A stretch of 64,000 bases of DNA from an uncultured Mycoplasmatota bacterium. Lineage in GTDB: Bacteria > Bacillota_I > Bacilli_A > RF39 > UBA660. The stretch is taken from assembly GCA_947652325.1 (NCBI GenBank), contig CANTCQ010000007.1, forward strand, positions 3,160 through 67,159, in the 5' to 3' direction. Position 1 is the first letter of the stretch. Each line of letters begins with the position of its first letter. Below are positions 27,117-64,000 of this stretch, piece by piece. The notes beneath the pieces were generated by a model. It saw only the letters and a program-made list of their open reading frames with translations, was not told the origin of the DNA and did no database searches. Both the position numbers and the translations under genes were made by a program.

Positions 27117-27539
27117 TCACAAGTTTGTTGTTAGTTTTTCTAACCAAAAATAATCTTTATTTTCAAAATCACATAAAAAGAGATTTTCCAATTCTTCCAA
27201 ATCTTGTAAAAAAGTTGGGCGAATGATTGTACTTTTTAAAAGCAAAAAATGTTGGTGAACAATTAATTTTGATTCTTCTTTTTTATATATGTTATTTATT
27301 TGATGAATATTCTTAAATTTGGTATAAAAAAAATTATCCTGGTATTTTTTGAAAAGTTTATTATCAAATTCTTTATTTCTAAATCGCTCTACCATCTTAT
27401 AAAAAAGGTCTGCTCCCCTTTTTATTTCTTCACGGTCAATATTGTAAATATAAGAAAGCATTTTAAATAAATGATAAGGATTGTTTTTTGTTAAATGAGC
27501 ATATTCTTCTTTGATTTTAAAAATATAGAAGGTACGCAT
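27117..27539 (-). CDS. sirA: SirA-like (YneE) sporulation inhibitor of replication, tentative.
   Basis: Position between tkt and yneF as in B. subtilis. N-terminus RTFYIFKIKEEYAH resembles the SirA N-terminus; weak similarity otherwise. Confidence 0.45.
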   Translation of the reverse strand: MRTFYIFKIKEEYAHLTKNNPYHLFKMLSYIYNIDREEIKRGADLFYKMVERFRNKEFDNKLFKKYQDNFFYTKFKNIHQINNIYKKEESKLIVHQHFLLLKSTIIRPTFLQDLEELENLFLCDFENKDYFWLEKLTTNL

Positions 27540-27602
27540 AAGCATCACCATATTTAGTATATAAGAAAAAAAAACTTATTTTGTCGAAAAAAAGCGAAAA
27601 AT

Positions 27603-46198: not shown

Positions 46199-47899
46199 TT
46201 AAAAAACTCCATTCCAAGATTCATGTGTTGGTTTATTTGCTGGGCTTTTATAAAACATATTTGATATTTGAGAACTGGATTGTCGTATAAAATTATTTCC
46301 ATAATTGATTTGATTCAAGTTTTTGCATTCATAAAACATTTCAGTCATATCTGTTACATTGCTTGTATCAAAATTACTTATATCTAAATTAATTAAATTT
46401 TCTCTTCCATAAAACATACGTCGCATGTTGGTTACTTTATTGGTATTAAAATTACTTAAATTTAAATTTGTTATTTTACTACGATTATTAAAATTATCAT
46501 AAAACATTTCTTCCATATTTGTTACGTTACTTGTGTTAAAATGGCTTATATTTAAGTTTACTAAACTTGGACAAAGCCCAAACATTTGTCTCATATTTGT
46601 TACATTACTTGTATCAAAGCTACTTAAATTTAAATTAACTAAATTTCGACTATTATAAAACATACCAAACATATTTGTTACATTACTTGTATCAAAGCTA
46701 CTTAAATTTAAATTAACTAAATTTATGTCACCAGCAAACATATTAGACATATCTTTTACTTTGCTCGTATTAAAATTACTTACATCCAAATCAGTTAATC
46801 TTTCACACGCGAAAAACATACCAGACATATTTGTTACATTACTCGTATCAAAATGGCTTACATCTAAATTTGTTATGTGATTACTCCCTTGAAACATACC
46901 AGACATATTTGTTACATTACTTGTATCAAAATTACTTAAATCTAAATTAATTAAATTTATGTTAGAACGAAACATACCAGACATATTTGTTACATTACTC
47001 GTATCAAAATATTCTAATCCTTCAATACTTTCTAAATAATAAAAACTTTCAAATAACATTCTACTATTAGAAGGTGCTTTAACCCCACCTTCACTTTGTA
47101 TATATAAAGTATATTTTGATGCGTTATTTTCATTCGGAACCAAATAACCCATAACACTTCCATCCGAATTTTCAGATAAATTAAAGCTTTCTATAACATT
47201 TTCTTTAGAATGCATTTCGGGTTCAAATACTATCTTTGTAATAGTATTTTGATACTTTAACGACCAAAAAGCTTCATACTGTTTATAAGCCATCATTGTT
47301 CCTCTAGCATCATAATTATCATCTATGACTCCTGTAACACTTATTTTTCCGATAAGATTTTTGTTCATAACATCATCTTCCATTGTAACGTTTTCATCTA
47401 ACCATAATTTTAAAGTATATGTTTTACTTTCTCCTATTCCTAAAGAATCAGTAGTTAGTTCATAAGCTTCTATAGCTTTTTTGTTATTTTCTTCATAAGT
47501 AGGTTCTACACTTGTATATTCTTTTAATTTTTGTATTTTTTTCTCATTAAAATTTGTATGGATATATTCACTTGAAAGTTGATTTTCTACTTCTAGTATT
47601 TCTAAATTCACACTATAACTTACTGCTAAATTACAAGTATTTTTTACTCTAAATGTATAGGGAACTAAACTTTTTGCTTCTTCTTTAGTTAATGGATAAG
47701 CATTTTTTAAACTAATAGCACTATTCTCTACATCTTCTATTATTACTTGTAAACAATTACTGGTTATTTTATTAATGCTTTCTTGATAGGCAGTATGAGT
47801 CCATAATGCATAACTGACACCTAGTGCTACTCCTATTATTGTTATGATTCCGATTATAAGTAAAAATATTTTTGTTTTCTTTTTGTATTTTTCTTTCAT
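46199..47899 (-). CDS. Surface protein with BspA-type leucine-rich repeats. Its N-terminal module is paralogous to 12152..13762.
   Basis: About nine ~22-aa repeats of the form L.NL.[LI]S.FDTSNVTNM.GMF. N-terminal signal-anchor plus the AYPLT..PYTFRVKNTC..YSVNLE module. Confidence 0.75.
   Translation of the reverse strand: MKEKYKKKTKIFLLIIGIITIIGVALGVSYALWTHTAYQESINKITSNCLQVIIEDVENSAISLKNAYPLTKEEAKSLVPYTFRVKNTCNLAVSYSVNLEILEVENQLSSEYIHTNFNEKKIQKLKEYTSVEPTYEENNKKAIEAYELTTDSLGIGESKTYTLKLWLDENVTMEDDVMNKNLIGKISVTGVIDDNYDARGTMMAYKQYEAFWSLKYQNTITKIVFEPEMHSKENVIESFNLSENSDGSVMGYLVPNENNASKYTLYIQSEGGVKAPSNSRMLFESFYYLESIEGLEYFDTSNVTNMSGMFRSNINLINLDLSNFDTSNVTNMSGMFQGSNHITNLDVSHFDTSNVTNMSGMFFACERLTDLDVSNFNTSKVKDMSNMFAGDINLVNLNLSSFDTSNVTNMFGMFYNSRNLVNLNLSSFDTSNVTNMRQMFGLCPSLVNLNISHFNTSNVTNMEEMFYDNFNNRSKITNLNLSNFNTNKVTNMRRMFYGRENLINLDISNFDTSNVTDMTEMFYECKNLNQINYGNNFIRQSSSQISNMFYKSPANKPTHESWNGVF
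46596..46735. repeat. Near-perfect ~66-bp tandem duplication inside the LRR coding region.
   Basis: ...catatttgttacattacttgtatcaaagctacttaaatttaaattaactaaattt... occurs twice in direct succession. Further diverged copies occur through 46380-47000. Confidence 0.7.
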
Positions 47900-52148: not shown

Positions 52149-52355
52149 CTATTTTTCTTTTTCATAGAAAATATCATCTGGCTTTAAATCGAATACCTTT
52201 GCAATATTTTTAGCCATATCATAATAAAGTCTTCTCTTTTTATGTTCAATTTGCCAATAAAAACATTTACTAATTTTTAATTTTTCGGCCATATCATCAT
52301 AACTATATTGTTTTGCCTTTCTTATTTTAGTTAATTTAGGATACCCATTTACCAT
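52149..52355 (-). CDS. Small XRE/Cro-like HTH regulator (68 aa), copy 1.
   Basis: HTH_3: YSYDDMAEKLKISKCFYWQIEHKKR. ~65% identical to the 53197..53418 product. Confidence 0.7.
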   Translation of the reverse strand: MVNGYPKLTKIRKAKQYSYDDMAEKLKISKCFYWQIEHKKRRLYYDMAKNIAKVFDLKPDDIFYEKEK

Positions 52356-52469
52356 ATATATACTTCACCTTTTTCTATTTAAATTAATTATAACACAATT
52401 TATAACTATATCCCACATATTCCCGTATTTTAAATTTTTTTAGGAGAAAATTATTACTAGGTGATTCTA

Positions 52470-52904
52470 ATGTATGAAATCCTAAAAGATTTAAGAGAGT
52501 ACCATGATTTAACCCAACAAGAAGTAGCTGATGCTCTTAAAATAAGTCGTTCTACCTATGCTGGATATGAAAGTGGAAAAGATGTTATTCCTTTAAAAAG
52601 GTTAAATGACTTTGCTAATTTTTATCATACAACCATTGATTATTTAGTAGGAAATAGTCCTACTATGGAAGAAGTTTTAATTTACCATACTTTTGATAGA
52701 AAGCAAGTTGCCCAAAATCTAAAGTCCTTTCGTGAAACTCGTAATATTACTCAAGAAGAGATTGCCGAAAAAATTAAGGTAAGTCAATCTTGTATTCATA
52801 AATACGAAACCAATAAAATTTTAATTACCACTTATTATACTTTAGAGTTTTCTAAGCAATACCACTATTCTTTGGATGAATTATTAGGAAGAAAAAACAA
52901 CTAA
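52470..52904 (+). CDS. XRE-family regulator with two tandem HTH_3 domains.
   Basis: The two HTH motifs are LTQQEVADALKISRSTYAGYESGK and ITQEEIAEKIKVSQSCIHKYETNK. Divergent from the small XRE. Confidence 0.7.
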   Translation: MYEILKDLREYHDLTQQEVADALKISRSTYAGYESGKDVIPLKRLNDFANFYHTTIDYLVGNSPTMEEVLIYHTFDRKQVAQNLKSFRETRNITQEEIAEKIKVSQSCIHKYETNKILITTYYTLEFSKQYHYSLDELLGRKNN

Positions 52905-52920
52905 TTTTTTAGTTGTTTTT

Positions 52921-53172
52921 TTAAAACATTTTGTCTATATTTTTGGGTACTTTATCACTTACGATTGTATTAATTATTTTATCTTCTTGCTCTTTGGATA
53001 CTTTCTTACCAGTCATTAAACTCAGAGTATTTATCACTTCTCGTAATGTATTTTCATTTTTCATATTTCCATCTTGTAATTTTTTAGCTAAATCAATGAT
53101 AGTATCTTTATTTACTTTTGTTTTCTTTTCTACTTTCTGAAAGAAATCATCTTTAAATTCCATTATACTCAC
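52921..53172 (-). CDS. spoVIF: Stage VI sporulation protein F-like (SpoVIF/YjcC family).
   Basis: FFQKVEKKTKV...DLAKKLQ..N.KNENTLREVINTL...KKVSKEQEDKIINTI matches the SpoVIF pattern (FFKNIEKKTGV...LA..LQ.ANF.DE.TVR.VI..V......V.KE.EDKIV). Confidence 0.55.
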   Translation of the reverse strand: MSIMEFKDDFFQKVEKKTKVNKDTIIDLAKKLQDGNMKNENTLREVINTLSLMTGKKVSKEQEDKIINTIVSDKVPKNIDKMF

Positions 53173-53196
53173 CTAGTAGTAATATATGAAATCTTT

Positions 53197-53418
53197 TTAT
53201 TTCGTTGTCATTTTTTCTTTTTCTTCATAAAAAATATCATCTGGTTTTAAATCAAAAACTGCTGCTATTTTTACAGCCATGTCATAATATAGTCTGCGAT
53301 TTTTATGTTCAATTTGCCAATAGTACGCTTTGCTTATTTCTAATATTTCAGCCATATCTTTACAGCTTAATTTTCTTTCTTCTCTTAATTTTTTTAAATA
53401 GTTTGTACTATTGTCCAT
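53197..53418 (-). CDS. Small XRE/Cro-like HTH regulator (73 aa), copy 2.
   Basis: LSCKDMAEILEISKAYYWQIEHKNRRLYYDMA. Paralogous to 52149..52355 at both protein and DNA level. Confidence 0.7.
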   Translation of the reverse strand: MDNSTNYLKKLREERKLSCKDMAEILEISKAYYWQIEHKNRRLYYDMAVKIAAVFDLKPDDIFYEEKEKMTTK

Positions 53419-53475
53419 AAAAACCCTCCAAAGTGTTTTTTATCATACTCTATATTTTTTAGAATGTCAATTTTA

Positions 53476-53534
53476 TATAGTTATAGCTAGGTAGACTTAC
53501 AAAGACTTAATTTCTATAGTTATTAGTAGGTAGA
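53476..53534. promoter_or_regulatory. Two 20-bp direct repeats, TATAGTTATAGCTAGGTAGA and TATAGTTATTAGTAGGTAGA, spaced 39 bp apart: candidate operators between the divergent XRE genes.
   Basis: Read directly at 53476-53495 and 53515-53534. The related motif TTATAACTATA (reverse complement) lies in the paralogous intergenic region at 52410-52420. Confidence 0.5.
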
Positions 53535-53548
53535 AATGAGGAAAATAT

Positions 53549-53821
53549 ATGAAATGTATTCGAAAAATTATTGGGGAAAATTTAAAACTTTTGCGCTATA
53601 AAAGTGGAAAAAGCCAAGAAAAATTTTATGAAGAATATAAATTAAGTTCTAAATATTATGCTTGTATTGAACGTGGTGAAATCAATATGACTATTGACTT
53701 TTTAGAAAAACTTGCTAAAACTTTGCATGTCGACATATCAGAGTTTTTTAATCGAGATGAAACAAGATTTGTTGATAAAAAACGAATTGATGAAAAAGAA
53801 AAAGAAGAATGTTTAAATTAA
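53549..53821 (+). CDS. XRE-family HTH regulator (90 aa).
   Basis: HTH_3: KSQEKFYEEYKLSSKYYACIERGE. Its end overlaps the der stop by 4 nt. Confidence 0.65.
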   Translation: MKCIRKIIGENLKLLRYKSGKSQEKFYEEYKLSSKYYACIERGEINMTIDFLEKLAKTLHVDISEFFNRDETRFVDKKRIDEKEKEECLN

Positions 53822-55125
53822 TCTTCTTTTTTATTTTTAAATTTTAATAGAATTGGTGTTCCCGAAAAATCAAAATTTTCTCTTATTTTATTTTCTAAAT
53901 ATCTTTCATAACTAAAATGAATTAATCCTTTATTATTTACTTGAAAGGTAAATTTTGGAGGTTTATTATCTGTTTGGCTTGCAAAATAGATTTTCAAACG
54001 TTTTCCTTTATAAGAAGGTGATTGGTGCATCGCTACTGCCTCTGTAATTACATTATTTAAATCGCTTGTTTTAATTTCTTTTTTGTTATTTTCATAAGCA
54101 GAGATTATAGCAGGCATAAGTGTATGTAATCTTTTTTTAGTTGTTGCTGAAACAAATACAATATTAGCATAGGATGCAAACATAAAGTGCGATTCTAAAT
54201 TTTTCTTCCATACTTTTATGGTTTTATCTGGGTCTTCAATCGTGTCCCATTTATTTACAACGATAACAATCCCTTTTCCTGCTTCTATCGCGTAAGATAA
54301 AATGTGTTTATCGTGTTCTATAATTCCTTCTTCGGCATTTACAACAAGTACACAAACATCACTTCTATCCATTGCTTTTAAACTACGAAGTAGACTGTAT
54401 TTTTCAATATTTTCATAAATACGCCCTTTTTTACGCATTCCGGCTGTATCAATTGCAACATATTCTTCCTTATTATATAAAAAAGGAGTGTCTGTTGCAT
54501 CTCGAGTAGTTCCAGCAATATCACTTACAATTACTCTTTCTTCATTTAATAAAGCGTTGATAAGGCTACTTTTTCCTACATTTGGTCTTCCAATAAAACA
54601 AAATTTAAGACGATTATCTTCTTCTTTTTCTTGTTCTAAGAAATCTTCTGTAATATTTTCTAACAGTTCTTCAAAACCTAAATTATGCGTGGCACTTATA
54701 GGTAATACTATTGCAAATCCTAGTTCATAAAAATTATAAATTAACTCATTTCTTTTTTGATTATCGATTTTATTCACTGCAACAATTACTTTTTTATTGG
54801 TTTTTATGAGCATATCACGAATTTTTAAATCACTTGCACTCATCTCTTCTTTGCCATCAACTACAAATACAATACAATCTGCTTCCTCTATAGCAAGTGT
54901 TGCTTGCGCTAAAATATCTTTGTTCCAATCATCATTATTATCTTCTATTCCACCCGTATCAATTAGTAAAAATGATTTGTTTTTATAAAATACATCTCCG
55001 TAAATCCTATCTCTTGTTACACCGGGTGTATCTAAAACAATCGATTTATTTTCTTTGATTAAACGATTAAAAATTGTAGATTTTCCTACATTCGGTTTTC
55101 CAATTAAACAAACAGTTTGTTTCAC
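53818..55125 (-). CDS. der: GTPase Der/EngA (tandem GTP-binding domains plus KH-like domain).
   Basis: Two G-domains (GKPNVGKST and GRPNVGKSS Walker A; DTGG/DTAG). Confidence 0.95.
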   Translation of the reverse strand: MKQTVCLIGKPNVGKSTIFNRLIKENKSIVLDTPGVTRDRIYGDVFYKNKSFLLIDTGGIEDNNDDWNKDILAQATLAIEEADCIVFVVDGKEEMSASDLKIRDMLIKTNKKVIVAVNKIDNQKRNELIYNFYELGFAIVLPISATHNLGFEELLENITEDFLEQEKEEDNRLKFCFIGRPNVGKSSLINALLNEERVIVSDIAGTTRDATDTPFLYNKEEYVAIDTAGMRKKGRIYENIEKYSLLRSLKAMDRSDVCVLVVNAEEGIIEHDKHILSYAIEAGKGIVIVVNKWDTIEDPDKTIKVWKKNLESHFMFASYANIVFVSATTKKRLHTLMPAIISAYENNKKEIKTSDLNNVITEAVAMHQSPSYKGKRLKIYFASQTDNKPPKFTFQVNNKGLIHFSYERYLENKIRENFDFSGTPILLKFKNKKED

Positions 55126-55167
55126 TCCTCACCCTCCTTTTTTGTTTCGTTATCTTACCATATTTTC

Positions 55168-55584
55168 TTATTTTCCGCAAATTGTTTTTACATCGTCATT
55201 AAAACCTACATAAACACGGTTGTATTTCACATAAACCTTAAAACTCATGTTATATAAATCTTCACTTGCTTTATCGCGAGGGTCAACTACATAAGGAGCA
55301 GCATTTTGGTCTTTTTTTAAATATCCTGTATCAATTAAGTCTTTTACTGTTAATACTTTTGTAGGATAACCTGTTGCGTTATCTATTGAAAAACTTTCTC
55401 TTCTATCTTCTCCATACATTTTCGCTGCTGTTTCTATAGAAGTATCTATTTTGGAACAATACATATTTACTTTTATTTTATTTGAAATACTAATTGTACT
55501 TGGTACAGCAATGGTTACTAAAACGGCTAATATTACAATAACCGCTAATAACTCTACTAATGTAAATCCTTTTTTATTTTTCAT
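55168..55584 (-). CDS. Type IV pilin-like protein, second orphan copy.
   Basis: MKNKKG/FTLVELLAVIVILAVL prepilin leader. RBS AAGGTGA. The C-terminal region is similar to the 8271 pilin (LTVKDLIDTGYL vs IRVDTLKEAGLF). Confidence 0.7.
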   Translation of the reverse strand: MKNKKGFTLVELLAVIVILAVLVTIAVPSTISISNKIKVNMYCSKIDTSIETAAKMYGEDRRESFSIDNATGYPTKVLTVKDLIDTGYLKKDQNAAPYVVDPRDKASEDLYNMSFKVYVKYNRVYVGFNDDVKTICGK

Positions 55585-55724
55585 ATTCTTCACCTTATTT
55601 TTAGTATAACATATTTTTTTCAAACATAATCTAGACTTTTTTTTATTATGTAAATAAATTGCAAAAATGCCTTGACATATATTCGCTTTTTCTTTATATT
55701 AATTAATTACGAAGGGGGATTTAT

Positions 55725-56957
55725 ATGTCTAATTTTAGCAACAATACAATTAAAGACGAAATAGAAAATTTGTTTCCAAATGAAAGTGTATATGATGTAA
55801 TTCATTTTATAAAAAAAATAAAAAAATTAATTCCTTTTGATTCTAAAGAAAAACTTGCTTATTTTAACGAAATTATAATATATGTTGATGGATTAATTAA
55901 TGGAGATATTATTTCTCAATATTCTACTTATGATGGTTTATCTAAGTATGCAAAAGAGGCATTTGATACCATTCTGCATTCTATTCATAAACAAATATTA
56001 GAATCTTACAAACAAGAAAAATATGAATTAGAAACAAGTATTAATAAGCTATCGAATGAACAAAAAGTACTTACAGAAGATGTTTCTAACTTACAACAAA
56101 AAAAGACAGATTTACAAAATGATACTTCTACTCTTGCTTTAGAACTTTTAAAAATCAAAGAAGAATTAGAACAACTAAAAGTAGAAGGGGTTAAAAATGC
56201 ACATGCAGAATTAGATAGTGAAAAAGAAATCATTCAAGCAGAAATTTCTACATTGAAAGGTGAAAAAGATAATTTAACTACTGCTACAGGCGAACTAAAA
56301 ACTTTATTAGCCAATTATAATCACACTATTTTAAAGCTTTTAGGGGATGAATCAAATAATTCCTGTACTTGGGAGCCTGTAAGTAAGGATGATGCCATTT
56401 ATAATACCAATGTATATACTATTGATAAATATGTTAAATCTTTAAAACGCACTTATCAAGAAAAAATGGGAGTATCTGAAAAAAAAGCTGAAAAAGATTT
56501 TAAAATGCATTGTCCTGGATTAACAGAATTTGTAAGTATATTAAAAGAATTTACTAACAAGATTCCTGAATGTGCTTCCGTTACAAATATTATTAATTTC
56601 GATAATTGGAACGAGAAAGCAAATTTCGATGTACAACGATTAATTGCAACATTAAAACTCTTAAAAATGCCAGCTTATTCTCCAAAAAAGATAAGTAATA
56701 TAGATAGTTATAGTATAACTCCAGATACGATTTCCAATAATATGAATATTATGTTACGAGAATTACATTTACAAAGAGTTGCCATGGAAGCAGTTGCAAA
56801 GCAAAAGATTTTAGAGGCAGAGCTTAAATCTGTTATTGAAATTTTAAAAAATGTAGTTCCTCAAGATTTTGATTTTGCACCACTTCTTCAAATGTATGGT
56901 CAAATAGACAGCTTGTTGCTTGATGAATTTAGTAATGATGCTAAGTTAACATTATAG
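55725..56957 (+). CDS. Hypothetical coiled-coil protein (410 aa).
   Basis: The central ~150 aa have a heptad-rich Q/E/L/K composition. No catalytic motifs. Confidence 0.5.
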   Translation: MSNFSNNTIKDEIENLFPNESVYDVIHFIKKIKKLIPFDSKEKLAYFNEIIIYVDGLINGDIISQYSTYDGLSKYAKEAFDTILHSIHKQILESYKQEKYELETSINKLSNEQKVLTEDVSNLQQKKTDLQNDTSTLALELLKIKEELEQLKVEGVKNAHAELDSEKEIIQAEISTLKGEKDNLTTATGELKTLLANYNHTILKLLGDESNNSCTWEPVSKDDAIYNTNVYTIDKYVKSLKRTYQEKMGVSEKKAEKDFKMHCPGLTEFVSILKEFTNKIPECASVTNIINFDNWNEKANFDVQRLIATLKLLKMPAYSPKKISNIDSYSITPDTISNNMNIMLRELHLQRVAMEAVAKQKILEAELKSVIEILKNVVPQDFDFAPLLQMYGQIDSLLLDEFSNDAKLTL

Positions 56958-56970
56958 ATTTTTAATTTAA

Positions 56971-56997
56971 AGAACACGAGAGTTTGTTCTTTTTTTA
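56971..56997 (+). terminator. Rho-independent terminator after the coiled-coil gene.
   Basis: AGAACACGAGAGTTTGTTCT hairpin plus TTTTTTT. Confidence 0.7.
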
Positions 56998-57103
56998 TCT
57001 TCTATTTTTTCAAAAAGTCGCTTGTAATGGGTTTCAAAATAGTTTTCTAAAAAATTTTGTTCTTCCTCACTACTACTATTAAAAAAAGAGAGTTTTTTCT
57101 CTC

Positions 57104-57352
57104 TTAAAAAGAATCAATATTGATTTTTACTTTTTTCTTATCGTGTAAATACGAATAGGCTTGTACGAGTGTACGAATAGCTTTAGCAGTAGAGCCAGAT
57201 TTTCCAATTACAGCTCCCATATCACTTTCTTTTACTAAAACTTCTAAATTTATAAACTCTTCTTCACTTCCTATTTCCTTAACACTTACCATATCGGAAT
57301 CTTTGGCAACACTTTTTACCAAAAATAATGTGTATTCTATAATACTATCCAT
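57104..57352 (-). CDS. KH-domain RNA-binding protein (YlqC-like).
   Basis: GAVIGKSGSTAKAIRTL (GxxG KH motif). It is cotranscribed with rpsP. Confidence 0.8.
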   Translation of the reverse strand: MDSIIEYTLFLVKSVAKDSDMVSVKEIGSEEEFINLEVLVKESDMGAVIGKSGSTAKAIRTLVQAYSYLHDKKKVKINIDSF

Positions 57353-57627
57353 TACTTACCTGCTTTTTTAGCTTCAGCGTATTTTTTCATTATTCCTTCT
57401 TTTGAAAGAATATTTCTTACTGTTTCTGTTGGAAGTGCTCCATTGTTTAACCAATAAAGCGCTTTTTCTTCATCTATTTTTGTTTCAGCAGGATTTGTAA
57501 TTGGATTATATGTTCCCACTACTTCCAAAAAACGTCCATCTCTAGGAAATCTAGAATCTGCCGCAACAATACGATAAAAAGGTCTTTGTTTTGCTCCCAT
57601 TCTTTTTAATCTTAATTTAACAGCCAT
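57352..57627 (-). CDS. rpsP: 30S ribosomal protein S16.
   Basis: [26 protein letters not shown] matches the canonical S16 N-terminus. Confidence 0.95.
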
Positions 57628-57698
57628 TTTTTTTCCTCCTTTAATTCGTTTTTAGTATAACACAGTAGAAAAATAGTGTCAACTTGATTTGGTTGACA

Positions 57699-58235
57699 CT
57701 ACTTCAAATATTCCTCATCAATCTCTTCGATTGCTTCTTCTTCTTTTTCACTTAAAATGTCTTCATCCGTAATAATTTCATATTCATCTTCCTCTTCTTC
57801 GATTGAAACTTTTATTTTTGTATCTCCTACTACTTCTACTCCAAGTTCTTTTTCTACATTTAATTTTACAATACCTTCATTTACAGATACATTGGTAACT
57901 GTTGGTTGTTTTAAACTCCTTACAATAATTTCTTCTTTGTTTGTAAGAGTCATATTATCCTTTAGATGTACTGGCATTTTTTCTTGATAACTAAAAGAAT
58001 TGTTTGTAACAGCTGTTTTTGTATCATTATCATAAGAATACCAAACATTTACATCAAATGTTCCTTCAATGTTTACAATACCTCCATTATTTCTTCCTTG
58101 AAACTGGTGGTTAATCACCCAACACCCTAAAATAGTGTCTGGTCTTAATTCTGGTGTAATTGTAAAATTTGATGTACTGGTTTTTTTAGCTTTTCCAATA
58201 ATTGCTTTTGTTACTATCTCTTTGTAATTTGCCAT
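57699..58235 (-). CDS. cotE: Spore coat morphogenetic protein CotE.
   Basis: The N-terminus MANYKEIVTKAIIGKAKK...FTITPE...ILGCWVINHQF...NVWYSY.D.TKT is collinear with B. subtilis CotE, and the tail is acidic. Confidence 0.8.
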   Translation of the reverse strand: MANYKEIVTKAIIGKAKKTSTSNFTITPELRPDTILGCWVINHQFQGRNNGGIVNIEGTFDVNVWYSYDNDTKTAVTNNSFSYQEKMPVHLKDNMTLTNKEEIIVRSLKQPTVTNVSVNEGIVKLNVEKELGVEVVGDTKIKVSIEEEEDEYEIITDEDILSEKEEEAIEEIDEEYLK

Positions 58236-58351
58236 TTTCGTAACCCTCCTCTATTTTAATGTATGCTACTCTATAGTATTTGTTCACATTCCTTTGCTAT
58301 TTTTATACTTTTGTGCTAGGATAAATTCTACATTTATTTAGAGGGGGTATT

Positions 58352-59209
58352 ATGAAAAAAATTTATTTAAACGAACAAGAAATTTTAAAATATCCTTTGT
58401 ATACTAAAAATAAAACAAATGAAGCTGAAGTACGAATATTTAGTTCAACAGAACTGATGAAGATTTTTCATTTTTATAGTCAAAACAAAGTAGATACTTT
58501 GTATTTACTTAATAAGTATCAGAATGATTTAGCTTTGGTTTCTGAATTTATTCTCTTTAAAAAATATATATACAATAAAAAGGATTTGTTACAAGGAATA
58601 CTTATAAATAAAGGTTATAAAATAAATTTACGAACACTTCTACAGGAGGGGTACAACTTTTCTTTTAATGATTTAATAGTTACTTTACAAAATGTAGGGA
58701 AAGTATTAGAAAAATTAAAATATATTCGTAATCATGAAAATAAATTAACTACTTTTTTTATTGGCGATTTGCAAGAGAGTAATATTTTGGTGGATATCCA
58801 AACAAAAAAGATTCAAATTATCGATTTAGATAGTTGCAAAATTGAGAATAATCGTGCTTTTGCTGCTAAATATTTAGAGTTTTTAAAAACATATTTTTAT
58901 GTAAGAGAAAATTTACAAGAAAAATATCCTTGGGATGGTTATCATTTTTCGAATAATGAAAATACAGACCTTTATTGCTATACTATGATAATTTTGAGAT
59001 TTTTATTTGGTGTGGATATAATGTTACTCGATTTAAATGCTTTTTATAACAAAATGTATGATTTAAAACAAGATGGTCTTCCAGATAGCCTGTATCAAAT
59101 TTTTATAAACCTTTATAACCATGTACCTAATCAAAATCCTTATCGGCTTTTGGATTTTATCCCCTCTTCTTTTGAAAGAAAAAGAGATTTGCATACACAA
59201 AAACAGTAA
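58352..59209 (+). CDS. Protein kinase-like fold protein (APH/CotS-type phosphotransferase-like), tentative.
   Basis: FFIGDLQESNILVD resembles the catalytic loop HGDLHxxNIL, and IQIIDLDS resembles the DFG/IDxD metal-binding motif. 285 aa, next to cotE. Confidence 0.4.
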   Translation: MKKIYLNEQEILKYPLYTKNKTNEAEVRIFSSTELMKIFHFYSQNKVDTLYLLNKYQNDLALVSEFILFKKYIYNKKDLLQGILINKGYKINLRTLLQEGYNFSFNDLIVTLQNVGKVLEKLKYIRNHENKLTTFFIGDLQESNILVDIQTKKIQIIDLDSCKIENNRAFAAKYLEFLKTYFYVRENLQEKYPWDGYHFSNNENTDLYCYTMIILRFLFGVDIMLLDLNAFYNKMYDLKQDGLPDSLYQIFINLYNHVPNQNPYRLLDFIPSSFERKRDLHTQKQ

Positions 59210-59228
59210 CAAAATTGTTACTGTTTTT

Positions 59229-61019
59229 TTATTCATACCAACTATTCTCAATATTGACGTTGCTACTTGCTGGCATTGGGTCTGGTAAATTTAATTTAGT
59301 TAATAATGGAACCCGAAAAGCTGTTCCAAAGACTAAAGCAGTCCCAGGTCTTAAGGTTTTTAATTTTTCAATATCTTGAGAGGTCAAATTACTAGAAATG
59401 GAAATTACTATATTTAAATCTTCTGGATGGAAAATACGATAGATTAAGAAGTTTGAACATTGTGATAAACAAGTTGTAGATAATTCACTTGGTCTTTGGG
59501 TAACAAAACCAAGTATTACCCCATATTTTCTTCCTTCTTTGGTAATTCTATCAAAAATGTTGTATCCAATTATATTGATATCGTTGTCATTTTGAACATA
59601 ACGATGTGCTTCTTCAATTATAATATGAATTGGAAAACTTGCTCTTTTTTCTAAAGATGTTGCAAAATCAAAAAACAATTTCATGTATAATTTAGTTAAA
59701 ATTTTAGCAAATCTTTCATCTACATAATTAAAATTCATATTTAAAAGTTGGACATATTCGACTTGATTTGTTAAAAACATACTTTTTACGAATTGCTCTT
59801 TTTTTATAAATTCACCTTTGTATTCAAAGTATTTTGATAGACCACTATTTAAAATAGAATGCATACGTACACGTAAATCGTTTGCTTTTTCATAAAGAGT
59901 AGCGTTATTTAGCATTCCTTCACTCATAAGTGCAAATTCTAAAGCATTGTATATATCTTCTAAGGTATAAGTAAGTTCTGTTTTCTCTATTTCAAAAGTT
60001 TCTATAGTTGTAAATGTATTTAAAAATTCAATAATGAATTGTAATGCTCCCATTTTTCCTTGTGAATCTATATTTAAGCATTGTTTTAAAGTTCTAGTAT
60101 ATCCTGGTTGCACGATAGCACTTTCTAAATTTAACTCTGGCGTATTAAATTTATTTAAAGTAGAAATAATTTGGTCACTTAATTGAGTAGAGGATTTTCC
60201 ACTTCCAATAATATCTAGCAAACTTTTGGCAATGATAGAATTTTTATATTTTATGGCTTTTTCTCCTGCTCCATGAAAAATAGCAACGTATTGTAAAGTT
60301 TTTTCCAAAATAGGAAGTAAAGTATGGTCATTTACATTAAGTAGAATAGCTAAATCATCTACTTCTAAAAAATAAGGAGGTATACTTACAATTTCGGATG
60401 ATACTTCATCTATATCTGTTTTAGTTGTATAGTATTTTACATTAATATTTGGAAAATTATTAATTTTCGTTAAGGCCGCATGGTATTCTCCATAAATATC
60501 AAATATTACTATATGCGCATTTTTAGGTATTTTGTTATTATAGTAAAATATATTTTGAATGAGACTTGCAACACCGCATGATTTACCGCAACCAGAATTT
60601 CCAATAATTGCAAAATGTTGATTAAAAAAGTCATTCATCTTTGCTGTTATTTTGTAGCCATCATATAAAGTGGATGCCCCTATTAAAAGATTTTCAGAGG
60701 ACATATACTCTTGGGAACCAATTATTAATTCTAATTCTTGTTTGTAAACAATTCGACAGTTACTTGTAATACTTGGATATTTCGTGGCCCCTGAGATAAA
60801 AGTATTTTCTTTTATTTCTCCAATTAATAAAATCGTAATTTCTTCTTCATTCATTCCAGAAATTTCTCCCACTATTTTAGGAGAAGTCGATGTACCTGTA
60901 TCTAATTCTTCAAACACTACATGAAAATTAATAACGTTTGCTTGAATCATTTTTGTTTTATTTTCTATTTTTACTACTTTTTCATCTATTTTTACAATTT
61001 TTCCAAACATACTAGTCAC
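59229..61019 (-). CDS. HerA/FtsK-superfamily (DUF87-like) P-loop ATPase, 596 aa.
   Basis: N-terminal beta-barrel-like region, Walker A GNSGCGKS, Walker B IIIEEAHRY and the VTQRPSE motif typical of HerA-like ATPases. No TM segments. Confidence 0.65.
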   Translation of the reverse strand: MTSMFGKIVKIDEKVVKIENKTKMIQANVINFHVVFEELDTGTSTSPKIVGEISGMNEEEITILLIGEIKENTFISGATKYPSITSNCRIVYKQELELIIGSQEYMSSENLLIGASTLYDGYKITAKMNDFFNQHFAIIGNSGCGKSCGVASLIQNIFYYNNKIPKNAHIVIFDIYGEYHAALTKINNFPNINVKYYTTKTDIDEVSSEIVSIPPYFLEVDDLAILLNVNDHTLLPILEKTLQYVAIFHGAGEKAIKYKNSIIAKSLLDIIGSGKSSTQLSDQIISTLNKFNTPELNLESAIVQPGYTRTLKQCLNIDSQGKMGALQFIIEFLNTFTTIETFEIEKTELTYTLEDIYNALEFALMSEGMLNNATLYEKANDLRVRMHSILNSGLSKYFEYKGEFIKKEQFVKSMFLTNQVEYVQLLNMNFNYVDERFAKILTKLYMKLFFDFATSLEKRASFPIHIIIEEAHRYVQNDNDINIIGYNIFDRITKEGRKYGVILGFVTQRPSELSTTCLSQCSNFLIYRIFHPEDLNIVISISSNLTSQDIEKLKTLRPGTALVFGTAFRVPLLTKLNLPDPMPASSNVNIENSWYE

Positions 61020-61117
61020 CCTATTCTTTTAATAGAATATCATAAAATTTTAGAAAATTAAATAGATAAAAAATCAACTTTATTTCTTTTACAAAAAAAA
61101 GAAGGTTGTTCCTCCTT

Positions 61118-61255
61118 TTAATATACGCCGTATCCGCTAAATCCTGCAAAGATTATTGCTAACAATATAAATAATACGATTATGATTAAAGCTGAACTTA
61201 TTCCTTGATTATTGTTATTGCAGCAATTGTCTTGATTTTTTTTACAGCAATTCAT
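61118..61255 (-). CDS. Tiny Cys-rich transmembrane protein (45 aa), YjcZ-like / tiny_TM_bacill family.
   Basis: RBS AAGGAGGTG 9 nt before ATG. MNCCKKNQDNCCNNNNQGISSALIIIVLFILLAIIFAGFSGYGVY: Cys-rich head, one TM helix, G/Y tail. Not in the ORF track (<60 aa). Confidence 0.7.
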   Translation of the reverse strand: MNCCKKNQDNCCNNNNQGISSALIIIVLFILLAIIFAGFSGYGVY

Positions 61256-61286
61256 TTAATTGGACACCTCCTTATATTTTTAAAGA

Positions 61287-61379
61287 CTAAATGAAAGCCC
61301 CTACAATGATAATGAGTAAGATAAATAATACAAGTATAATAGCTGGACCAAGTCCGTTATTGCAGCAACCATGATTCAT
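61287..61379 (-). CDS. Tiny Cys-rich transmembrane protein (30 aa), tandem paralogue.
   Basis: RBS AGGAGG 8 nt before ATG. MNHGCCNNGLGPAIILVLFILLIIIVGAFI. Confidence 0.7.
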   Translation of the reverse strand: MNHGCCNNGLGPAIILVLFILLIIIVGAFI

Positions 61380-61502
61380 AATTTCATTCCTCCTTTATTT
61401 GTCTTTTCATTTATATTGTATGGTAAGTTTTGTAGTTGGTGAGTGTTCTTCTTGTATTTTTTTTTTAAATTCGTTATAATAATTATTGTTTAGGAGGATT
61501 TT

Positions 61503-62513
61503 ATGAAGAAAAAAATAATTGTACTTGGTTTATGTAGTTTAATGATATGTGGATGCGGTAAAACAATACCGAAGCTGGAAAATGGAAGTGATGCAATCGT
61601 TAGTTTTTCCAATGGAGAAAAAATAAGCATTGATGATTTATACAATGATTTAAAAAATAACTATGCTTTGGAGTCTCTTATTAGTTTAGTCGATAAGAAA
61701 ATATTAGAAGATAAATATAAAGACAATTTAAGTAGTGCAACTGAATATGCAGATGCGACTATGAAATCTCTAGAAGAAAATTATGGAGAAGATTTACTTA
61801 GTGCCATTCAAAGTTATACTTCTTTTTCTACTGTAGAAGCCTATAAAAATTATGTTTATATTAGTTATTTACAAAATCAAGCTATTGAAGATTATGCTAA
61901 AAATCAAATACAGGAAAAAGAATTAAAAGAATATTACGAAAAAAGCATTTATGGAGATGTTTTGGTTCATCATATACTTGTGACACCTAATGTAAAAGAT
62001 GGAGCAACAGCAGAAGAAAAAACGGCTGCTGAAGAAGAAGCGAAAAACAAAATAAATACGGTTATTGCGAAATTAAAAGAAAGCGATAATATAAAAGATA
62101 CTTTTGCTTCTCTTGCTAAAGAATACTCCGAAGATACTTCTACAAAAGATGAAGGAGGTTCTCTTGGATATATTAATGATGGAACACTTTCAAGTAGCTA
62201 TGATGAAATTATAAAAAATGCTTTTAAGTTAAAAGATGGAGAATACTCAACTGAAATAATTACTACAGAACTAGGCTACCATGTTATTTATCGTGAAGCA
62301 TCAAAAGAAAAAGCAAAATTTGAAGATGTAGTAGATAGCATTCGTGAAACGTTAGGAAAAAAACTCTTAAGTGAAGATACCACAATTAATACAAAAGCAA
62401 TGCAAAATATTCGAAAAGAATATGGAATGGATATTATTGATAGCGAAGTACAAAATCAATATGCAAGATATATTCAAAATGCTCTTTCTCAAAAACAAAA
62501 TACAACTAACTAA
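61503..62513 (+). CDS. prsA: PrsA-like foldase lipoprotein (parvulin-type peptidyl-prolyl isomerase).
   Basis: Lipoprotein signal LGLCSLMICGC. Parvulin motifs VHHILV, GGSLGYI and ELGYHVIY. Confidence 0.8.
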   Translation: MKKKIIVLGLCSLMICGCGKTIPKLENGSDAIVSFSNGEKISIDDLYNDLKNNYALESLISLVDKKILEDKYKDNLSSATEYADATMKSLEENYGEDLLSAIQSYTSFSTVEAYKNYVYISYLQNQAIEDYAKNQIQEKELKEYYEKSIYGDVLVHHILVTPNVKDGATAEEKTAAEEEAKNKINTVIAKLKESDNIKDTFASLAKEYSEDTSTKDEGGSLGYINDGTLSSSYDEIIKNAFKLKDGEYSTEIITTELGYHVIYREASKEKAKFEDVVDSIRETLGKKLLSEDTTINTKAMQNIRKEYGMDIIDSEVQNQYARYIQNALSQKQNTTN

Positions 62514-62520
62514 AAAAATA

Positions 62521-63312
62521 TCATTTGATTGATATTTTTTTTATACCTTCTAAAACTTCTTCTATATCTTCATATAAAAATCCCTTATTTATAAGTCTTC
62601 CTTTAATTTGAAAAAACAATTCTTTTTCTTTATACTTCTTATTTAATTTATTATAAAGTTTTTCAGCTTCTTTTTCTAAAGCTTGATTATTTTTAGGAAT
62701 ATTTATCATTTCCAAAATACTTAAAATTTCTTCTTTATTAAATCCTTCCCTTATAAAAGTAAAAAGTATTTTTTCTTTTATTTTATTACTTCCCTCTTTT
62801 TTATTAGCTTTTGTTTTTTTTATAATGCTATGTTTTAATTTTTCATGCCAGATTTCATCGGGAATTTTTGCTAAATAGTCCTCTATTTTTTCTTCTGCAA
62901 ATTCTAAATCCATCAATTTTTTTTTAATTTTCTTAGGACCATTTGCTGTTAATTTTAGTTGGTCATTTACAAATGCTTCTATATAATTTTCTTCATTGAT
63001 AATATTTTTTTCTTCTAATTTTGTTATGGTATTTTCAATTTGTTGATAGTCAAAACCATTTCTTTTTAAATACTCTTTTATTTCTTTTTTCGCTCGATTT
63101 TTATTGGTTACATAATGGATCGCTTTGTAATAACAGTTTAGTTTTTCATTTTCTTTTTGTATTTCTATTAATTCTTTTTCTGTTATTTCTTTTTTTAAAA
63201 GTAAATTGTATTTTAAAATAATATCATCGTAAAGCGTAATCTCTTTTTGATTATCAATAAAATATATTTGATAACAATTGTTTTTTACTTTTTTATAATT
63301 TTTTATTTTCAT
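62521..63312 (-). CDS. recX: RecX regulatory protein.
   Basis: 263 aa of repeated three-helix RecX motifs (KKEI.EYLKRNGFD..., EAFVNDQLK...GPKKIKKKL). Confidence 0.7.
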   Translation of the reverse strand: MKIKNYKKVKNNCYQIYFIDNQKEITLYDDIILKYNLLLKKEITEKELIEIQKENEKLNCYYKAIHYVTNKNRAKKEIKEYLKRNGFDYQQIENTITKLEEKNIINEENYIEAFVNDQLKLTANGPKKIKKKLMDLEFAEEKIEDYLAKIPDEIWHEKLKHSIIKKTKANKKEGSNKIKEKILFTFIREGFNKEEILSILEMINIPKNNQALEKEAEKLYNKLNKKYKEKELFFQIKGRLINKGFLYEDIEEVLEGIKKISIK

Positions 63313-63374
63313 GTATTAATTATAACACCATTTTTTTTAAATTAAAAAAAAATTAATATTTTCATATTAATTTT

Positions 63375-63959
63375 TTATTTTTTTAATTGTTTTAAGTAGC
63401 CTTCTACCACTTCCATTTGTTCCAAAAGTTCATTTTTTTTATTATATGTTTCTTCTAATTGCCTTATACAATCTTCTAAAAAATATATCTTTGCTGTGTT
63501 ATTAGTATTTCTTATTTGTAGGTGTAACTGCTCTATTAAAAGTAAAGATTTGGTACAAACTTCCTTATCTTCTTTTTCCATTTCATTCACTATTGGTGCT
63601 ATTTCTTTTTGTCTATTTTTTTCAATTTGTCCAGTTTCAATTGCTTTTTTATTTTTATTTAATTCTTCAGATAATGCAATAGTTAAATCATATATTTTCT
63701 TTAATCTATTTTCTGTTTTATCTTCTATTTCCATTTTTAAATTGTTATATAAGTATTCTGTATAAGTATTTAAATCAAAACGAGGGCCTTGTATAACAAT
63801 TTCTTTTGCTTCTATCATTTTTTCGGCTTCATTTAAAATAAATTTTGCTTTTTTGCATAAATATTTTTCTACTGTTTTTGTATCCACATAATCAAAAATT
63901 TCATTATAAATACTTGCTAAACCAAAATTTTCTATTTCTACTAATCTTTTTAAAGACAC
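63375..63959 (-). CDS. Hypothetical coiled-coil protein (194 aa).
   Basis: ORF with charged heptad-rich sequence and no motifs. Confidence 0.4.
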   Translation of the reverse strand: MSLKRLVEIENFGLASIYNEIFDYVDTKTVEKYLCKKAKFILNEAEKMIEAKEIVIQGPRFDLNTYTEYLYNNLKMEIEDKTENRLKKIYDLTIALSEELNKNKKAIETGQIEKNRQKEIAPIVNEMEKEDKEVCTKSLLLIEQLHLQIRNTNNTAKIYFLEDCIRQLEETYNKKNELLEQMEVVEGYLKQLKK

Positions 63960-64000
63960 TGGTTTATTGTTTGTGTCATATTTTTGATTTTCTTTTAAAC

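Follow-up and report, generated by a model that had tools for sequence, protein, structure and literature searches.

The locus beside cotE

We analysed a 64-kb stretch of DNA (hereafter the window) from contig CANTCQ010000007.1 of an uncultured Mycoplasmatota bacterium, in which the gene of a HerA-like ATPase and the gene of a 285-aa protein, here called K285, converge beside cotE. An initial annotation had listed both open reading frames (ORFs) in this arrangement and had read them as an uncharacterised two-gene module. Both ORFs were found again, as were the neighbours named with them, cotE and the genes of tiny Cys-rich peptides 5' of the HerA gene. However, we conclude that HerA and K285 are separate genes and not a system. 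The features of the locus are as follows.

57699-58235, minus strand: cotE, divergent from K285 (Pfam CotE, E = 3.9e-49); context, outside any module
58257-58287, minus strand: putative cotE promoter, AC-N16-CATACATTA, with the -10 CATACATTA at 58265-58257; kept in 8 related loci
58294-58322, plus strand: putative K285 promoter, with -35 TTGCTA, a 17-nt spacer and extended -10 TGcTAGGAT
58352-59209, plus strand: K285 gene, an ORF of 285 aa with a single domain
59199-59228, both strands: perfect 13-bp inverted repeat, AAAAACAGTAAC-AAAA-GTTACTGTTTTT, with an A-run on one side and a T-run on the other
59229-61010, minus strand: HerA-like gene, 593 aa, ATG start at 61010
61022-61016, minus strand: putative Shine-Dalgarno sequence of HerA, AGGGTGA
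61034-61042, minus strand: putative extended -10 of HerA, TGaTATTCT; the pattern is kept across orthologous loci
61062-61057, minus strand: putative weak -35 of HerA, TTTAAT
61097-61119, minus strand: terminator-like hairpin and T-run, 3' of the 45-aa peptide gene
61255-61118, minus strand: gene of a 45-aa Cys-rich membrane peptide with the N-terminus MNCCKKNQDNCCNNNN
61379-61287, minus strand: gene of a 30-aa Cys-rich membrane peptide of the YjcZ family

As first read, the HerA ORF comprised 596 aa (59229-61019, minus strand) and began with a GTG at 61019. Because the start at ATG 61010, which opens the protein with MFGK, is common to 23 orthologous loci together with the AGGGTGA Shine-Dalgarno sequence 5' of it, and because the public gene call (P0027) likewise gives 593 aa, we take ATG 61010 to be the true start. 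In 24 orthologous loci, TGnTATnnT and AGGGTGA stand at constant spacing from the start codon.

Read from its consensus, the HerA promoter would be of the sigma-A type. The same holds for the K285 promoter, which is kept as TTGnnn-17-TGnTA(G/A)(G/A)AT in 8 loci. We also considered the K285 -10 (GGATAAATT) as a sigma-F element and discarded this, since its distance from the -35 is wrong for sigma-F and two related loci (L014 and L001) keep TGnTAnnAT but not the GG. Among the three promoters, a CATAnnnTA -10 is present only at cotE and is lacking at K285 and HerA. The cotE element AC-N16-CATACATTA appears to fit the B. subtilis sigma-K/sigma-E mother-cell consensus. A generic sigma-70 scan was uninformative in this AT-rich DNA (25 sites against 25.2 expected), and Rfam gave no match within 55000-64000.

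K285 and HerA converge at a distance of 19 bp, and the 13-bp repeat bridges the gap, overlapping the K285 stop codon and abutting that of HerA. This repeat is a predicted bidirectional terminator common to both genes. The hairpin at 61119-61097 is predicted to shield HerA from upstream transcription, and similar hairpins lie 5' of HerA in other loci. Of the two peptides on its far side, that of 30 aa matches TIGR01732 (22.1 bits, cut-off 21.35), and no model matched that of 45 aa. In a related locus, L005, the slot of the Cys-rich peptides holds genes for a 51-aa and a 45-aa peptide, a 143-aa ORF and a C39-peptidase ABC exporter.

A HerA-family ATPase and a kinase-fold protein

The initial assignment of the larger protein to the HerA/DUF87 ATPases is well supported by Pfam (DUF87, PF01935: 70.9 bits against a cut-off of 23.2, E = 2.2e-19), and all the motifs listed at the time (Walker A, Walker B and VTQRP in HerA, DLxxxN and IDLD in K285) are in the sequences. 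HerA carries Walker A as GNSGCGKS, Walker B as HIIIEEAH(RY), and the motifs KEGRKYG and VTQRPSEL. An N-terminal beta-barrel (residues ~1-125), Walker A and a helical insert (~226-420) are followed by Walker B, KEGRKYG and VTQRP. In the AlphaFold2 (AF2) model, which has a predicted local distance difference test score (pLDDT) of 68.6, residues 1-125 are all-beta (pLDDT 70-89) and residues 226-420 helical; together with the HerA matches in Foldseek, this agrees with the HAS-barrel-like N-terminus claimed initially. The catalytic motifs are invariant in 20 orthologues and in most members of the clade described below. Hence the window HerA is, as predicted from its sequence, a catalytically intact P-loop ATPase of the HerA family.

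Searches beyond Pfam placed the protein closest to HerAs of defence systems. A sequence search of the PDB returned a HerA protein with every significant match, and the best Foldseek matches of the full-length model were the S. aureus and E. coli HerAs of SIR2-HerA and DUF4297-HerA, ahead of NurA-HerA. Several PADLOC HerA models matched as well, the best being PDLC04102 with 368 bits. Scores fell far below the cut-offs of the NCBIfam HerA_antiphage models (163.6 bits against 800, and 148 against 850) and of the NurA-type HerA model NF040819 (104.5 against 970).

For K285, the initial annotation had suggested an APH/CotS-like kinase fold, of which the kinase fold is confirmed and the APH/CotS affinity is not supported. 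The AF2 model, built from a 20-sequence alignment, is of high confidence (pLDDT 93.3, predicted template modelling score 0.91). In Foldseek it matched JAK2, BRAF, CK2, IRAK4 and BAK1 in the PDB (E ~1e-8, probability 1.0) and viral Ser/Thr kinases in BFVD. All of the top 50 PDB fold matches were eukaryotic-like kinases, and a reading as APH/CotS, which also lacks a Pfam match, is not supported. A profile of the family searched against the PDB likewise hit kinases only, with weak scores. Four residues are invariant across 20 family members: K37 on the third strand, D139 and N144 in GDL(H/Q)ExN, and D158 in IDLD (GDLQESN and IIDLDS in the window); all four lie on the secondary-structure elements where a kinase would have them, and their equivalence to kinase catalytic residues was set by position, not by residue-level superposition. 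A DLYCY motif resembles kinase subdomain IX. The GxGxxG Gly-rich loop is not present in K285, where the region reads KTNEAEV.

With the sequence of K285 alone, nothing significant was found in the PDB or Pfam. No Pfam Pkinase match appeared at E<=0.01, nor any APH or CotH match or NCBIfam family. The PADLOC model STK_OB weakly matched the catalytic loop (E = 0.005), and a comparison with phage genomes gave no match. A profile search retrieved at least 353 family members of ~295 aa from gut metagenomes, in none of which a Pfam domain was found. Some short homologues (165-173 aa: P0007, P0014, P0017, P0018) look like calls of the C-lobe only, following frameshifts. We conclude that K285 represents an undescribed family, without a Pfam model, within the known kinase superfamily; its model points to a eukaryotic-like Ser/Thr protein-kinase fold, and it would probably have kinase activity.

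Distribution and genomic context of the two genes

If the two genes formed a module they should occur together. The comparison comprised 28 loci, found by way of homologues of HerA or K285 and labelled with a K285-family hidden Markov model and BLAST. HerA was present at every related HerA locus compared. An intact K285 lies between HerA and cotE in seven cases (the window, L005/6, L008, L010, L014, L015 and L023), and probably in L009, which is cut by a contig end. It is frameshifted in two lineages, L021 and L001/2, and in the latter the remnant still adjoins cotE with HerA 4 kb away. In six loci K285 is absent though HerA and cotE are still neighbours (L007, L011, L012, L016, L017, L018), and it is also absent from L003, L019, L020, L022 and L024-L027. 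None of the HerA loci at 51-57% identity has it, and no relative of it was seen near more distant stand-alone HerAs. Conversely, K285 relatives of 29-36% identity (L029, L030) sit in unrelated contexts and adjoin neither HerA nor cotE. Within the same genomes, K285 is 47-55% identical and HerA 74-79%. In all 8 loci with a visible flank, K285 is immediately divergent from cotE.

The slot between HerA and cotE is variable in content. Where it lacks an intact K285 (read in L001, L007, L011, L012, L016, L017 and L018), it holds nothing; HIT and a 288-aa lipoprotein; Gmk, a small membrane protein and HIT; or ABC-transporter genes. In L001, HerA is followed two genes on by a 299-aa ORF, which was considered as a diverged K285 and dismissed: BLASTP and alignment show it to be unrelated, and it looks like a membrane protein. 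K285 is an accessory, dispensable gene in this slot. Since the two genes are convergent, have a common terminator and separate promoters, and K285 is patchy in its distribution, the module proposed initially is unsupported; K285 is missing or broken at most HerA loci, and the two genes do not regularly co-occur, an outcome that the initial annotation had itself named as refuting its proposal.

The relatives of HerA were collected in a HMMER search of 1.84 billion cluster representatives, which yielded 139 clusters with E<=1e-30. In a neighbour-joining tree of 48 sequences with 100 bootstraps, the stand-alone HerAs formed a monophyletic clade (100/100) that grouped with the SIR2-linked HerAs as sisters (89/100). 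In the full-length SIR2-linked relatives, which are 32-40% identical, a SIR2_2 gene lies directly upstream and overlaps the HerA start. Their loci are defence islands or Listeria plasmids (annotated SIR2 and DUF87; SIR2 was seen in L036, L037 and L040). The stand-alone relatives, at 35-57% identity, have housekeeping genes as neighbours, and the following contexts were read.

Window: RecX-PrsA, then HerA, then cotE-rpsP
FtsK-HIT-PrsA, then HerA, then sigE-spoIIGA
P0149 lineage (L031/L032, 5125-7992): PP2C-HerA-SepF-DivIVA-IleS
FtsY-x-YlxM-HerA
rpmH, then HerA, then dnaA-dnaN
A sulfatase-family gene (Pfam Sulfatase) adjoining HerA
P0159 lineage (L038/L039): RmuC-HerA, with RmuC 44 bp upstream in two independent samples

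In the P0149 lineage, 81 bp separate the stand-alone HerA from the PP2C phosphatase gene, which precedes it in the same orientation, and sepF-divIVA-ileS follow. Three members of the clade with 829-943 aa (P0153, P0154, P0163) carry disordered C-terminal tails of 250-350 aa rich in Ser, Thr and Asn. Fused effector domains were ruled out for these tails, which are of low complexity and have no Pfam match.

All ORFs of at least 120 aa in the window were compared with Pfam, and those left unassigned also with PADLOC. No SIR2, NurA or DUF4297 match was found among them, in keeping with what had been noted initially. SIR2 was likewise absent among the called genes of the stand-alone loci, DUF4297 had no match in related loci, and no effector lay beside any of ~30 stand-alone loci, at which no defence-island neighbours were seen either. 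The literature that we searched on stand-alone or sporulation-linked HerA contained no description of an effector-less HerA clade; the clade is a variant of known HerA motors.

The divergence of HerA follows that of the essential GTPase Der. The identities of HerA and Der are 80 vs 82% in L007, 77 vs 83% in L012, 86 vs 92% in L021 and 71 vs 78% in L016. HerA looks like a core gene, because its divergence tracks Der, its motifs are invariant and its contexts are housekeeping ones. The window itself, at ~28% GC, is core chromosome of a spore-forming, Erysipelotrichaceae-like member of the uncultured gut Bacilli and includes ftsA, ftsZ, spoIIGA, sigE, sigG, spoIVA and der, as well as ffh, ftsY, lexA, nrdDG and dnaB/dnaI-like genes.

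Several other features of the window are recorded here. A 410-aa coiled-coil ORF (55725-56957, plus strand), flanked by a ComGC-like pilin gene and by the KH/rpsP genes, lacks homologues in all related loci and gave only weak SMC/JetC coiled-coil matches; its position is a second variable slot, occupied in L005 by an unrelated 354-aa ORF. Beside der, four small XRE/HTH_3 regulators (52149-53821) are interleaved with a SpoVIF-like gene (52921-53172), and this cluster is kept, with rearrangements, in L005, L007, L012 and L016. A 566-aa protein with DUF285 repeats, a Mycoplasma-type family, is encoded next to ftsA (46199-47899, minus strand). An ORF at 27117-27551 (minus strand) weakly resembles SirA, the sporulation inhibitor of replication, with 24.9 bits, below the cut-off of 26.

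Candidate roles and known counterparts

Based on these findings, we think it probable that the locus comprises two independent, abutting transcription units: a stand-alone HerA motor of the housekeeping type and an unrelated accessory kinase. The motor belongs to a clade that is a stand-alone sister of the SIR2-HerA motor and that is fixed, without an effector gene, in the core chromosome of uncultured low-GC gut Bacilli, which are Erysipelotrichaceae-like spore formers. By analogy with solved HerAs, which are hexamers, it may form a ring with a collar of N-terminal beta-barrels and drive DNA translocation or unwinding with ATP. Under its own sigma-A-type promoter, HerA would serve a housekeeping DNA transaction, such as repair, recombination or chromosome handling, and not abortive-infection defence. 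We favour this role for its Der-like conservation, housekeeping neighbourhoods, sigma-A-type promoter and lack of an effector, and give this specific assignment an even chance of being right. K285 would be a soluble, single-domain, Hanks-like Ser/Thr kinase with its own promoter, encoded by a gene that is often lost or frameshifted.

A number of observations weigh against this interpretation. Defence HerAs are the nearest relatives of HerA and also rank first among its PADLOC and structural matches. In L005/L006 (GCA_964430695.1), HerA (L005:6879-8639) has intact motifs and is ~51% identical to every other clade member, amid flanks (Der, RpsP, KH, CotE) that are 80-95% identical to the window. 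In a housekeeping gene this pattern is odd, and it points to allelic replacement or to recombination with a breakpoint at HerA. Degenerate Walker B or TQR motifs occur in a few members of the clade (P0147, P0152, P0163), which may be inactive. The proposed DNA transaction draws on family homology and on weak, heterogeneous neighbours (RecX, RmuC, dnaA, FtsK). In addition, the tree was built from distances among 48 sequences and not by maximum likelihood, the HerA model is moderately confident at its pLDDT of 68.6, and the sigma-factor assignments are readings of consensus.

The main rival, which we regard as unlikely, is that the stand-alone HerA is an anti-phage ATPase and acts either as a single gene or together with an effector from another part of the genome. 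It would account for the sister relationship to SIR2-linked HerAs, for a HerA model as the best PADLOC match and for SIR2-HerA and DUF4297-HerA proteins ranking ahead of NurA-HerA in structure, and the divergent L005 allele among conserved flanks recalls the turnover of defence genes. Action as a single gene would be in line with the nickase or nuclease activity inherent in some HerAs; a type III HerA of E. coli has intrinsic nickase activity (PMC13434337). However, SIR2-HerA exerts its toxicity through the SIR2 NADase, which is missing from this locus, and no effector was found in the 64-kb window or beside the ~30 stand-alone loci. The syntenic position among housekeeping genes, the Der-like rate, the lack of visible defence-island neighbours and the low HerA_antiphage score (164 against 800) also argue against it. 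Beyond relatedness to SIR2-HerA, the anti-phage role raised initially gained no positive support. The sporulation role raised as its alternative gained none beyond synteny, and we consider it quite improbable. It would make K285 a coat or mother-cell kinase co-regulated with cotE, like CotS or CotH, and HerA a sporulation-specific ATPase. In its favour, K285 is divergent from cotE in 8/8 loci and keeps its place beside cotE in L001/2, where HerA is 4 kb off; YjcZ-family peptides, a SpoVIF-like gene and spoIVA are nearby, and the lineage has sigE, sigG and spoIIGA. Yet the -10 elements of K285 and HerA are of the putative sigma-A type, the mother-cell-type CATAnnnTA being confined to cotE, and K285 has no APH/CotS or CotH signature; many genomes with cotE have lost it or carry a frameshifted copy. 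Moreover, the distant relatives of K285 and the distant stand-alone HerAs occur in non-sporulation contexts.

A functional pair, in which the kinase regulates the HerA motor or serves as its effector, appears very unlikely to us. The genes are adjacent in 7-8 loci, and with PP2C 81 bp upstream of HerA elsewhere, phospho-signalling genes adjoin the clade twice. Against this, the two are convergent, with a predicted common terminator and separate promoters, and K285 is absent or broken at most HerA loci when HerA is never absent. K285 also diverges much faster (47-55% vs 74-79% identity) and persists as a remnant apart from HerA in L001/2. Its family numbers at least 353 proteins, and neither of the two distant members with a context read lies beside HerA. 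Almost as doubtful is the idea that the stand-alone HerA clade descends from the SIR2-HerA motor, or is its sibling, and was domesticated in gut Bacilli as a core chromosome-handling ATPase tuned by Ser/Thr phosphorylation, although such tuning would explain the kinase next to HerA here, the PP2C in the P0149 lineage and the Ser/Thr-rich tails.

The reading as two independent units can be set against known systems on both sides of the locus. K285 shares with the Hanks-type kinases (PrkC/PknB, PF00069) the predicted bilobal fold, the beta-3 Lys (K37), D139 and N144, D158 as the equivalent of the DFG Asp, and the subdomain-IX-like DLYCY. Unlike PrkC/PknB, it is only 285 aa long, lacks the Gly-rich loop, an obvious alpha-C Glu and a Pfam Pkinase match, and is without regulatory, transmembrane or PASTA domains. 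With CotS/CotI/YtaA/YutH (APH-like, PF01636) and CotH it has in common the protein-kinase-like superfamily and the place next to a coat morphogenetic gene; it differs in a promoter that does not appear to be of the sigma-E/K type and in being dispensable in many cotE-bearing relatives. K285 brings to notice an undescribed family, uncaptured by Pfam, of at least 353 minimal proteins with a Ser/Thr-kinase fold in uncultured gut Bacilli.

Most discussion of bacterial HerAs now concerns their part as motor or scaffold in abortive infection by SIR2-HerA and DUF4297-HerA, or their partnership with NurA. NurA-HerA is the precedent for a HerA that acts as a housekeeping dsDNA translocase, with a nuclease partner, in DNA end resection. 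Its HerAs (Sulfolobus 4d2i, Thermococcus 9x1m, Deinococcus 7wrw) share the fold and P-loop motifs with the window protein, and one basal stand-alone HerA lies directly downstream of RmuC, a recombination nuclease-like gene, which parallels this arrangement. Unlike in NurA-HerA, there is no adjacent NurA, Mre11 or Rad50, and the similarity is weaker than to defence HerAs. DUF4297-HerA differs by its adjacent gene of a DUF4297 (Cap4-like) nuclease, for which neither the window nor the related loci gave a match.

The best structural matches are the SIR2-HerA (Nezha) HerAs, S. aureus SaHerA (8yhx, 8yho) and that of E. coli (8j4u, 8su9). Common to these and the window HerA are the beta-barrel, a RecA-like ATPase with Walker A/B, KEGRKYG and SQRP/TQRP, and the helical-bundle insert. 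Unlike in SIR2-HerA, no SIR2 gene stands upstream of HerA in the window or at any locus of the stand-alone clade, and the window HerA is located in the core chromosome and not in a defence island or on a plasmid. The N-terminal 60 residues of SaHerA are needed for Sir2 binding (PMC11514289), and the corresponding 60 residues are the region in which the stand-alone and SIR2-linked clades are least similar (22% identity). A PADLOC match to HerA alone does not indicate a defence system, which should serve as a warning for annotation pipelines. If the reading of a stand-alone housekeeping HerA is true, either a motor of the defence type has been put to a core cellular task, or, conversely, the clade represents the housekeeping stock that gave rise to the defence motor.

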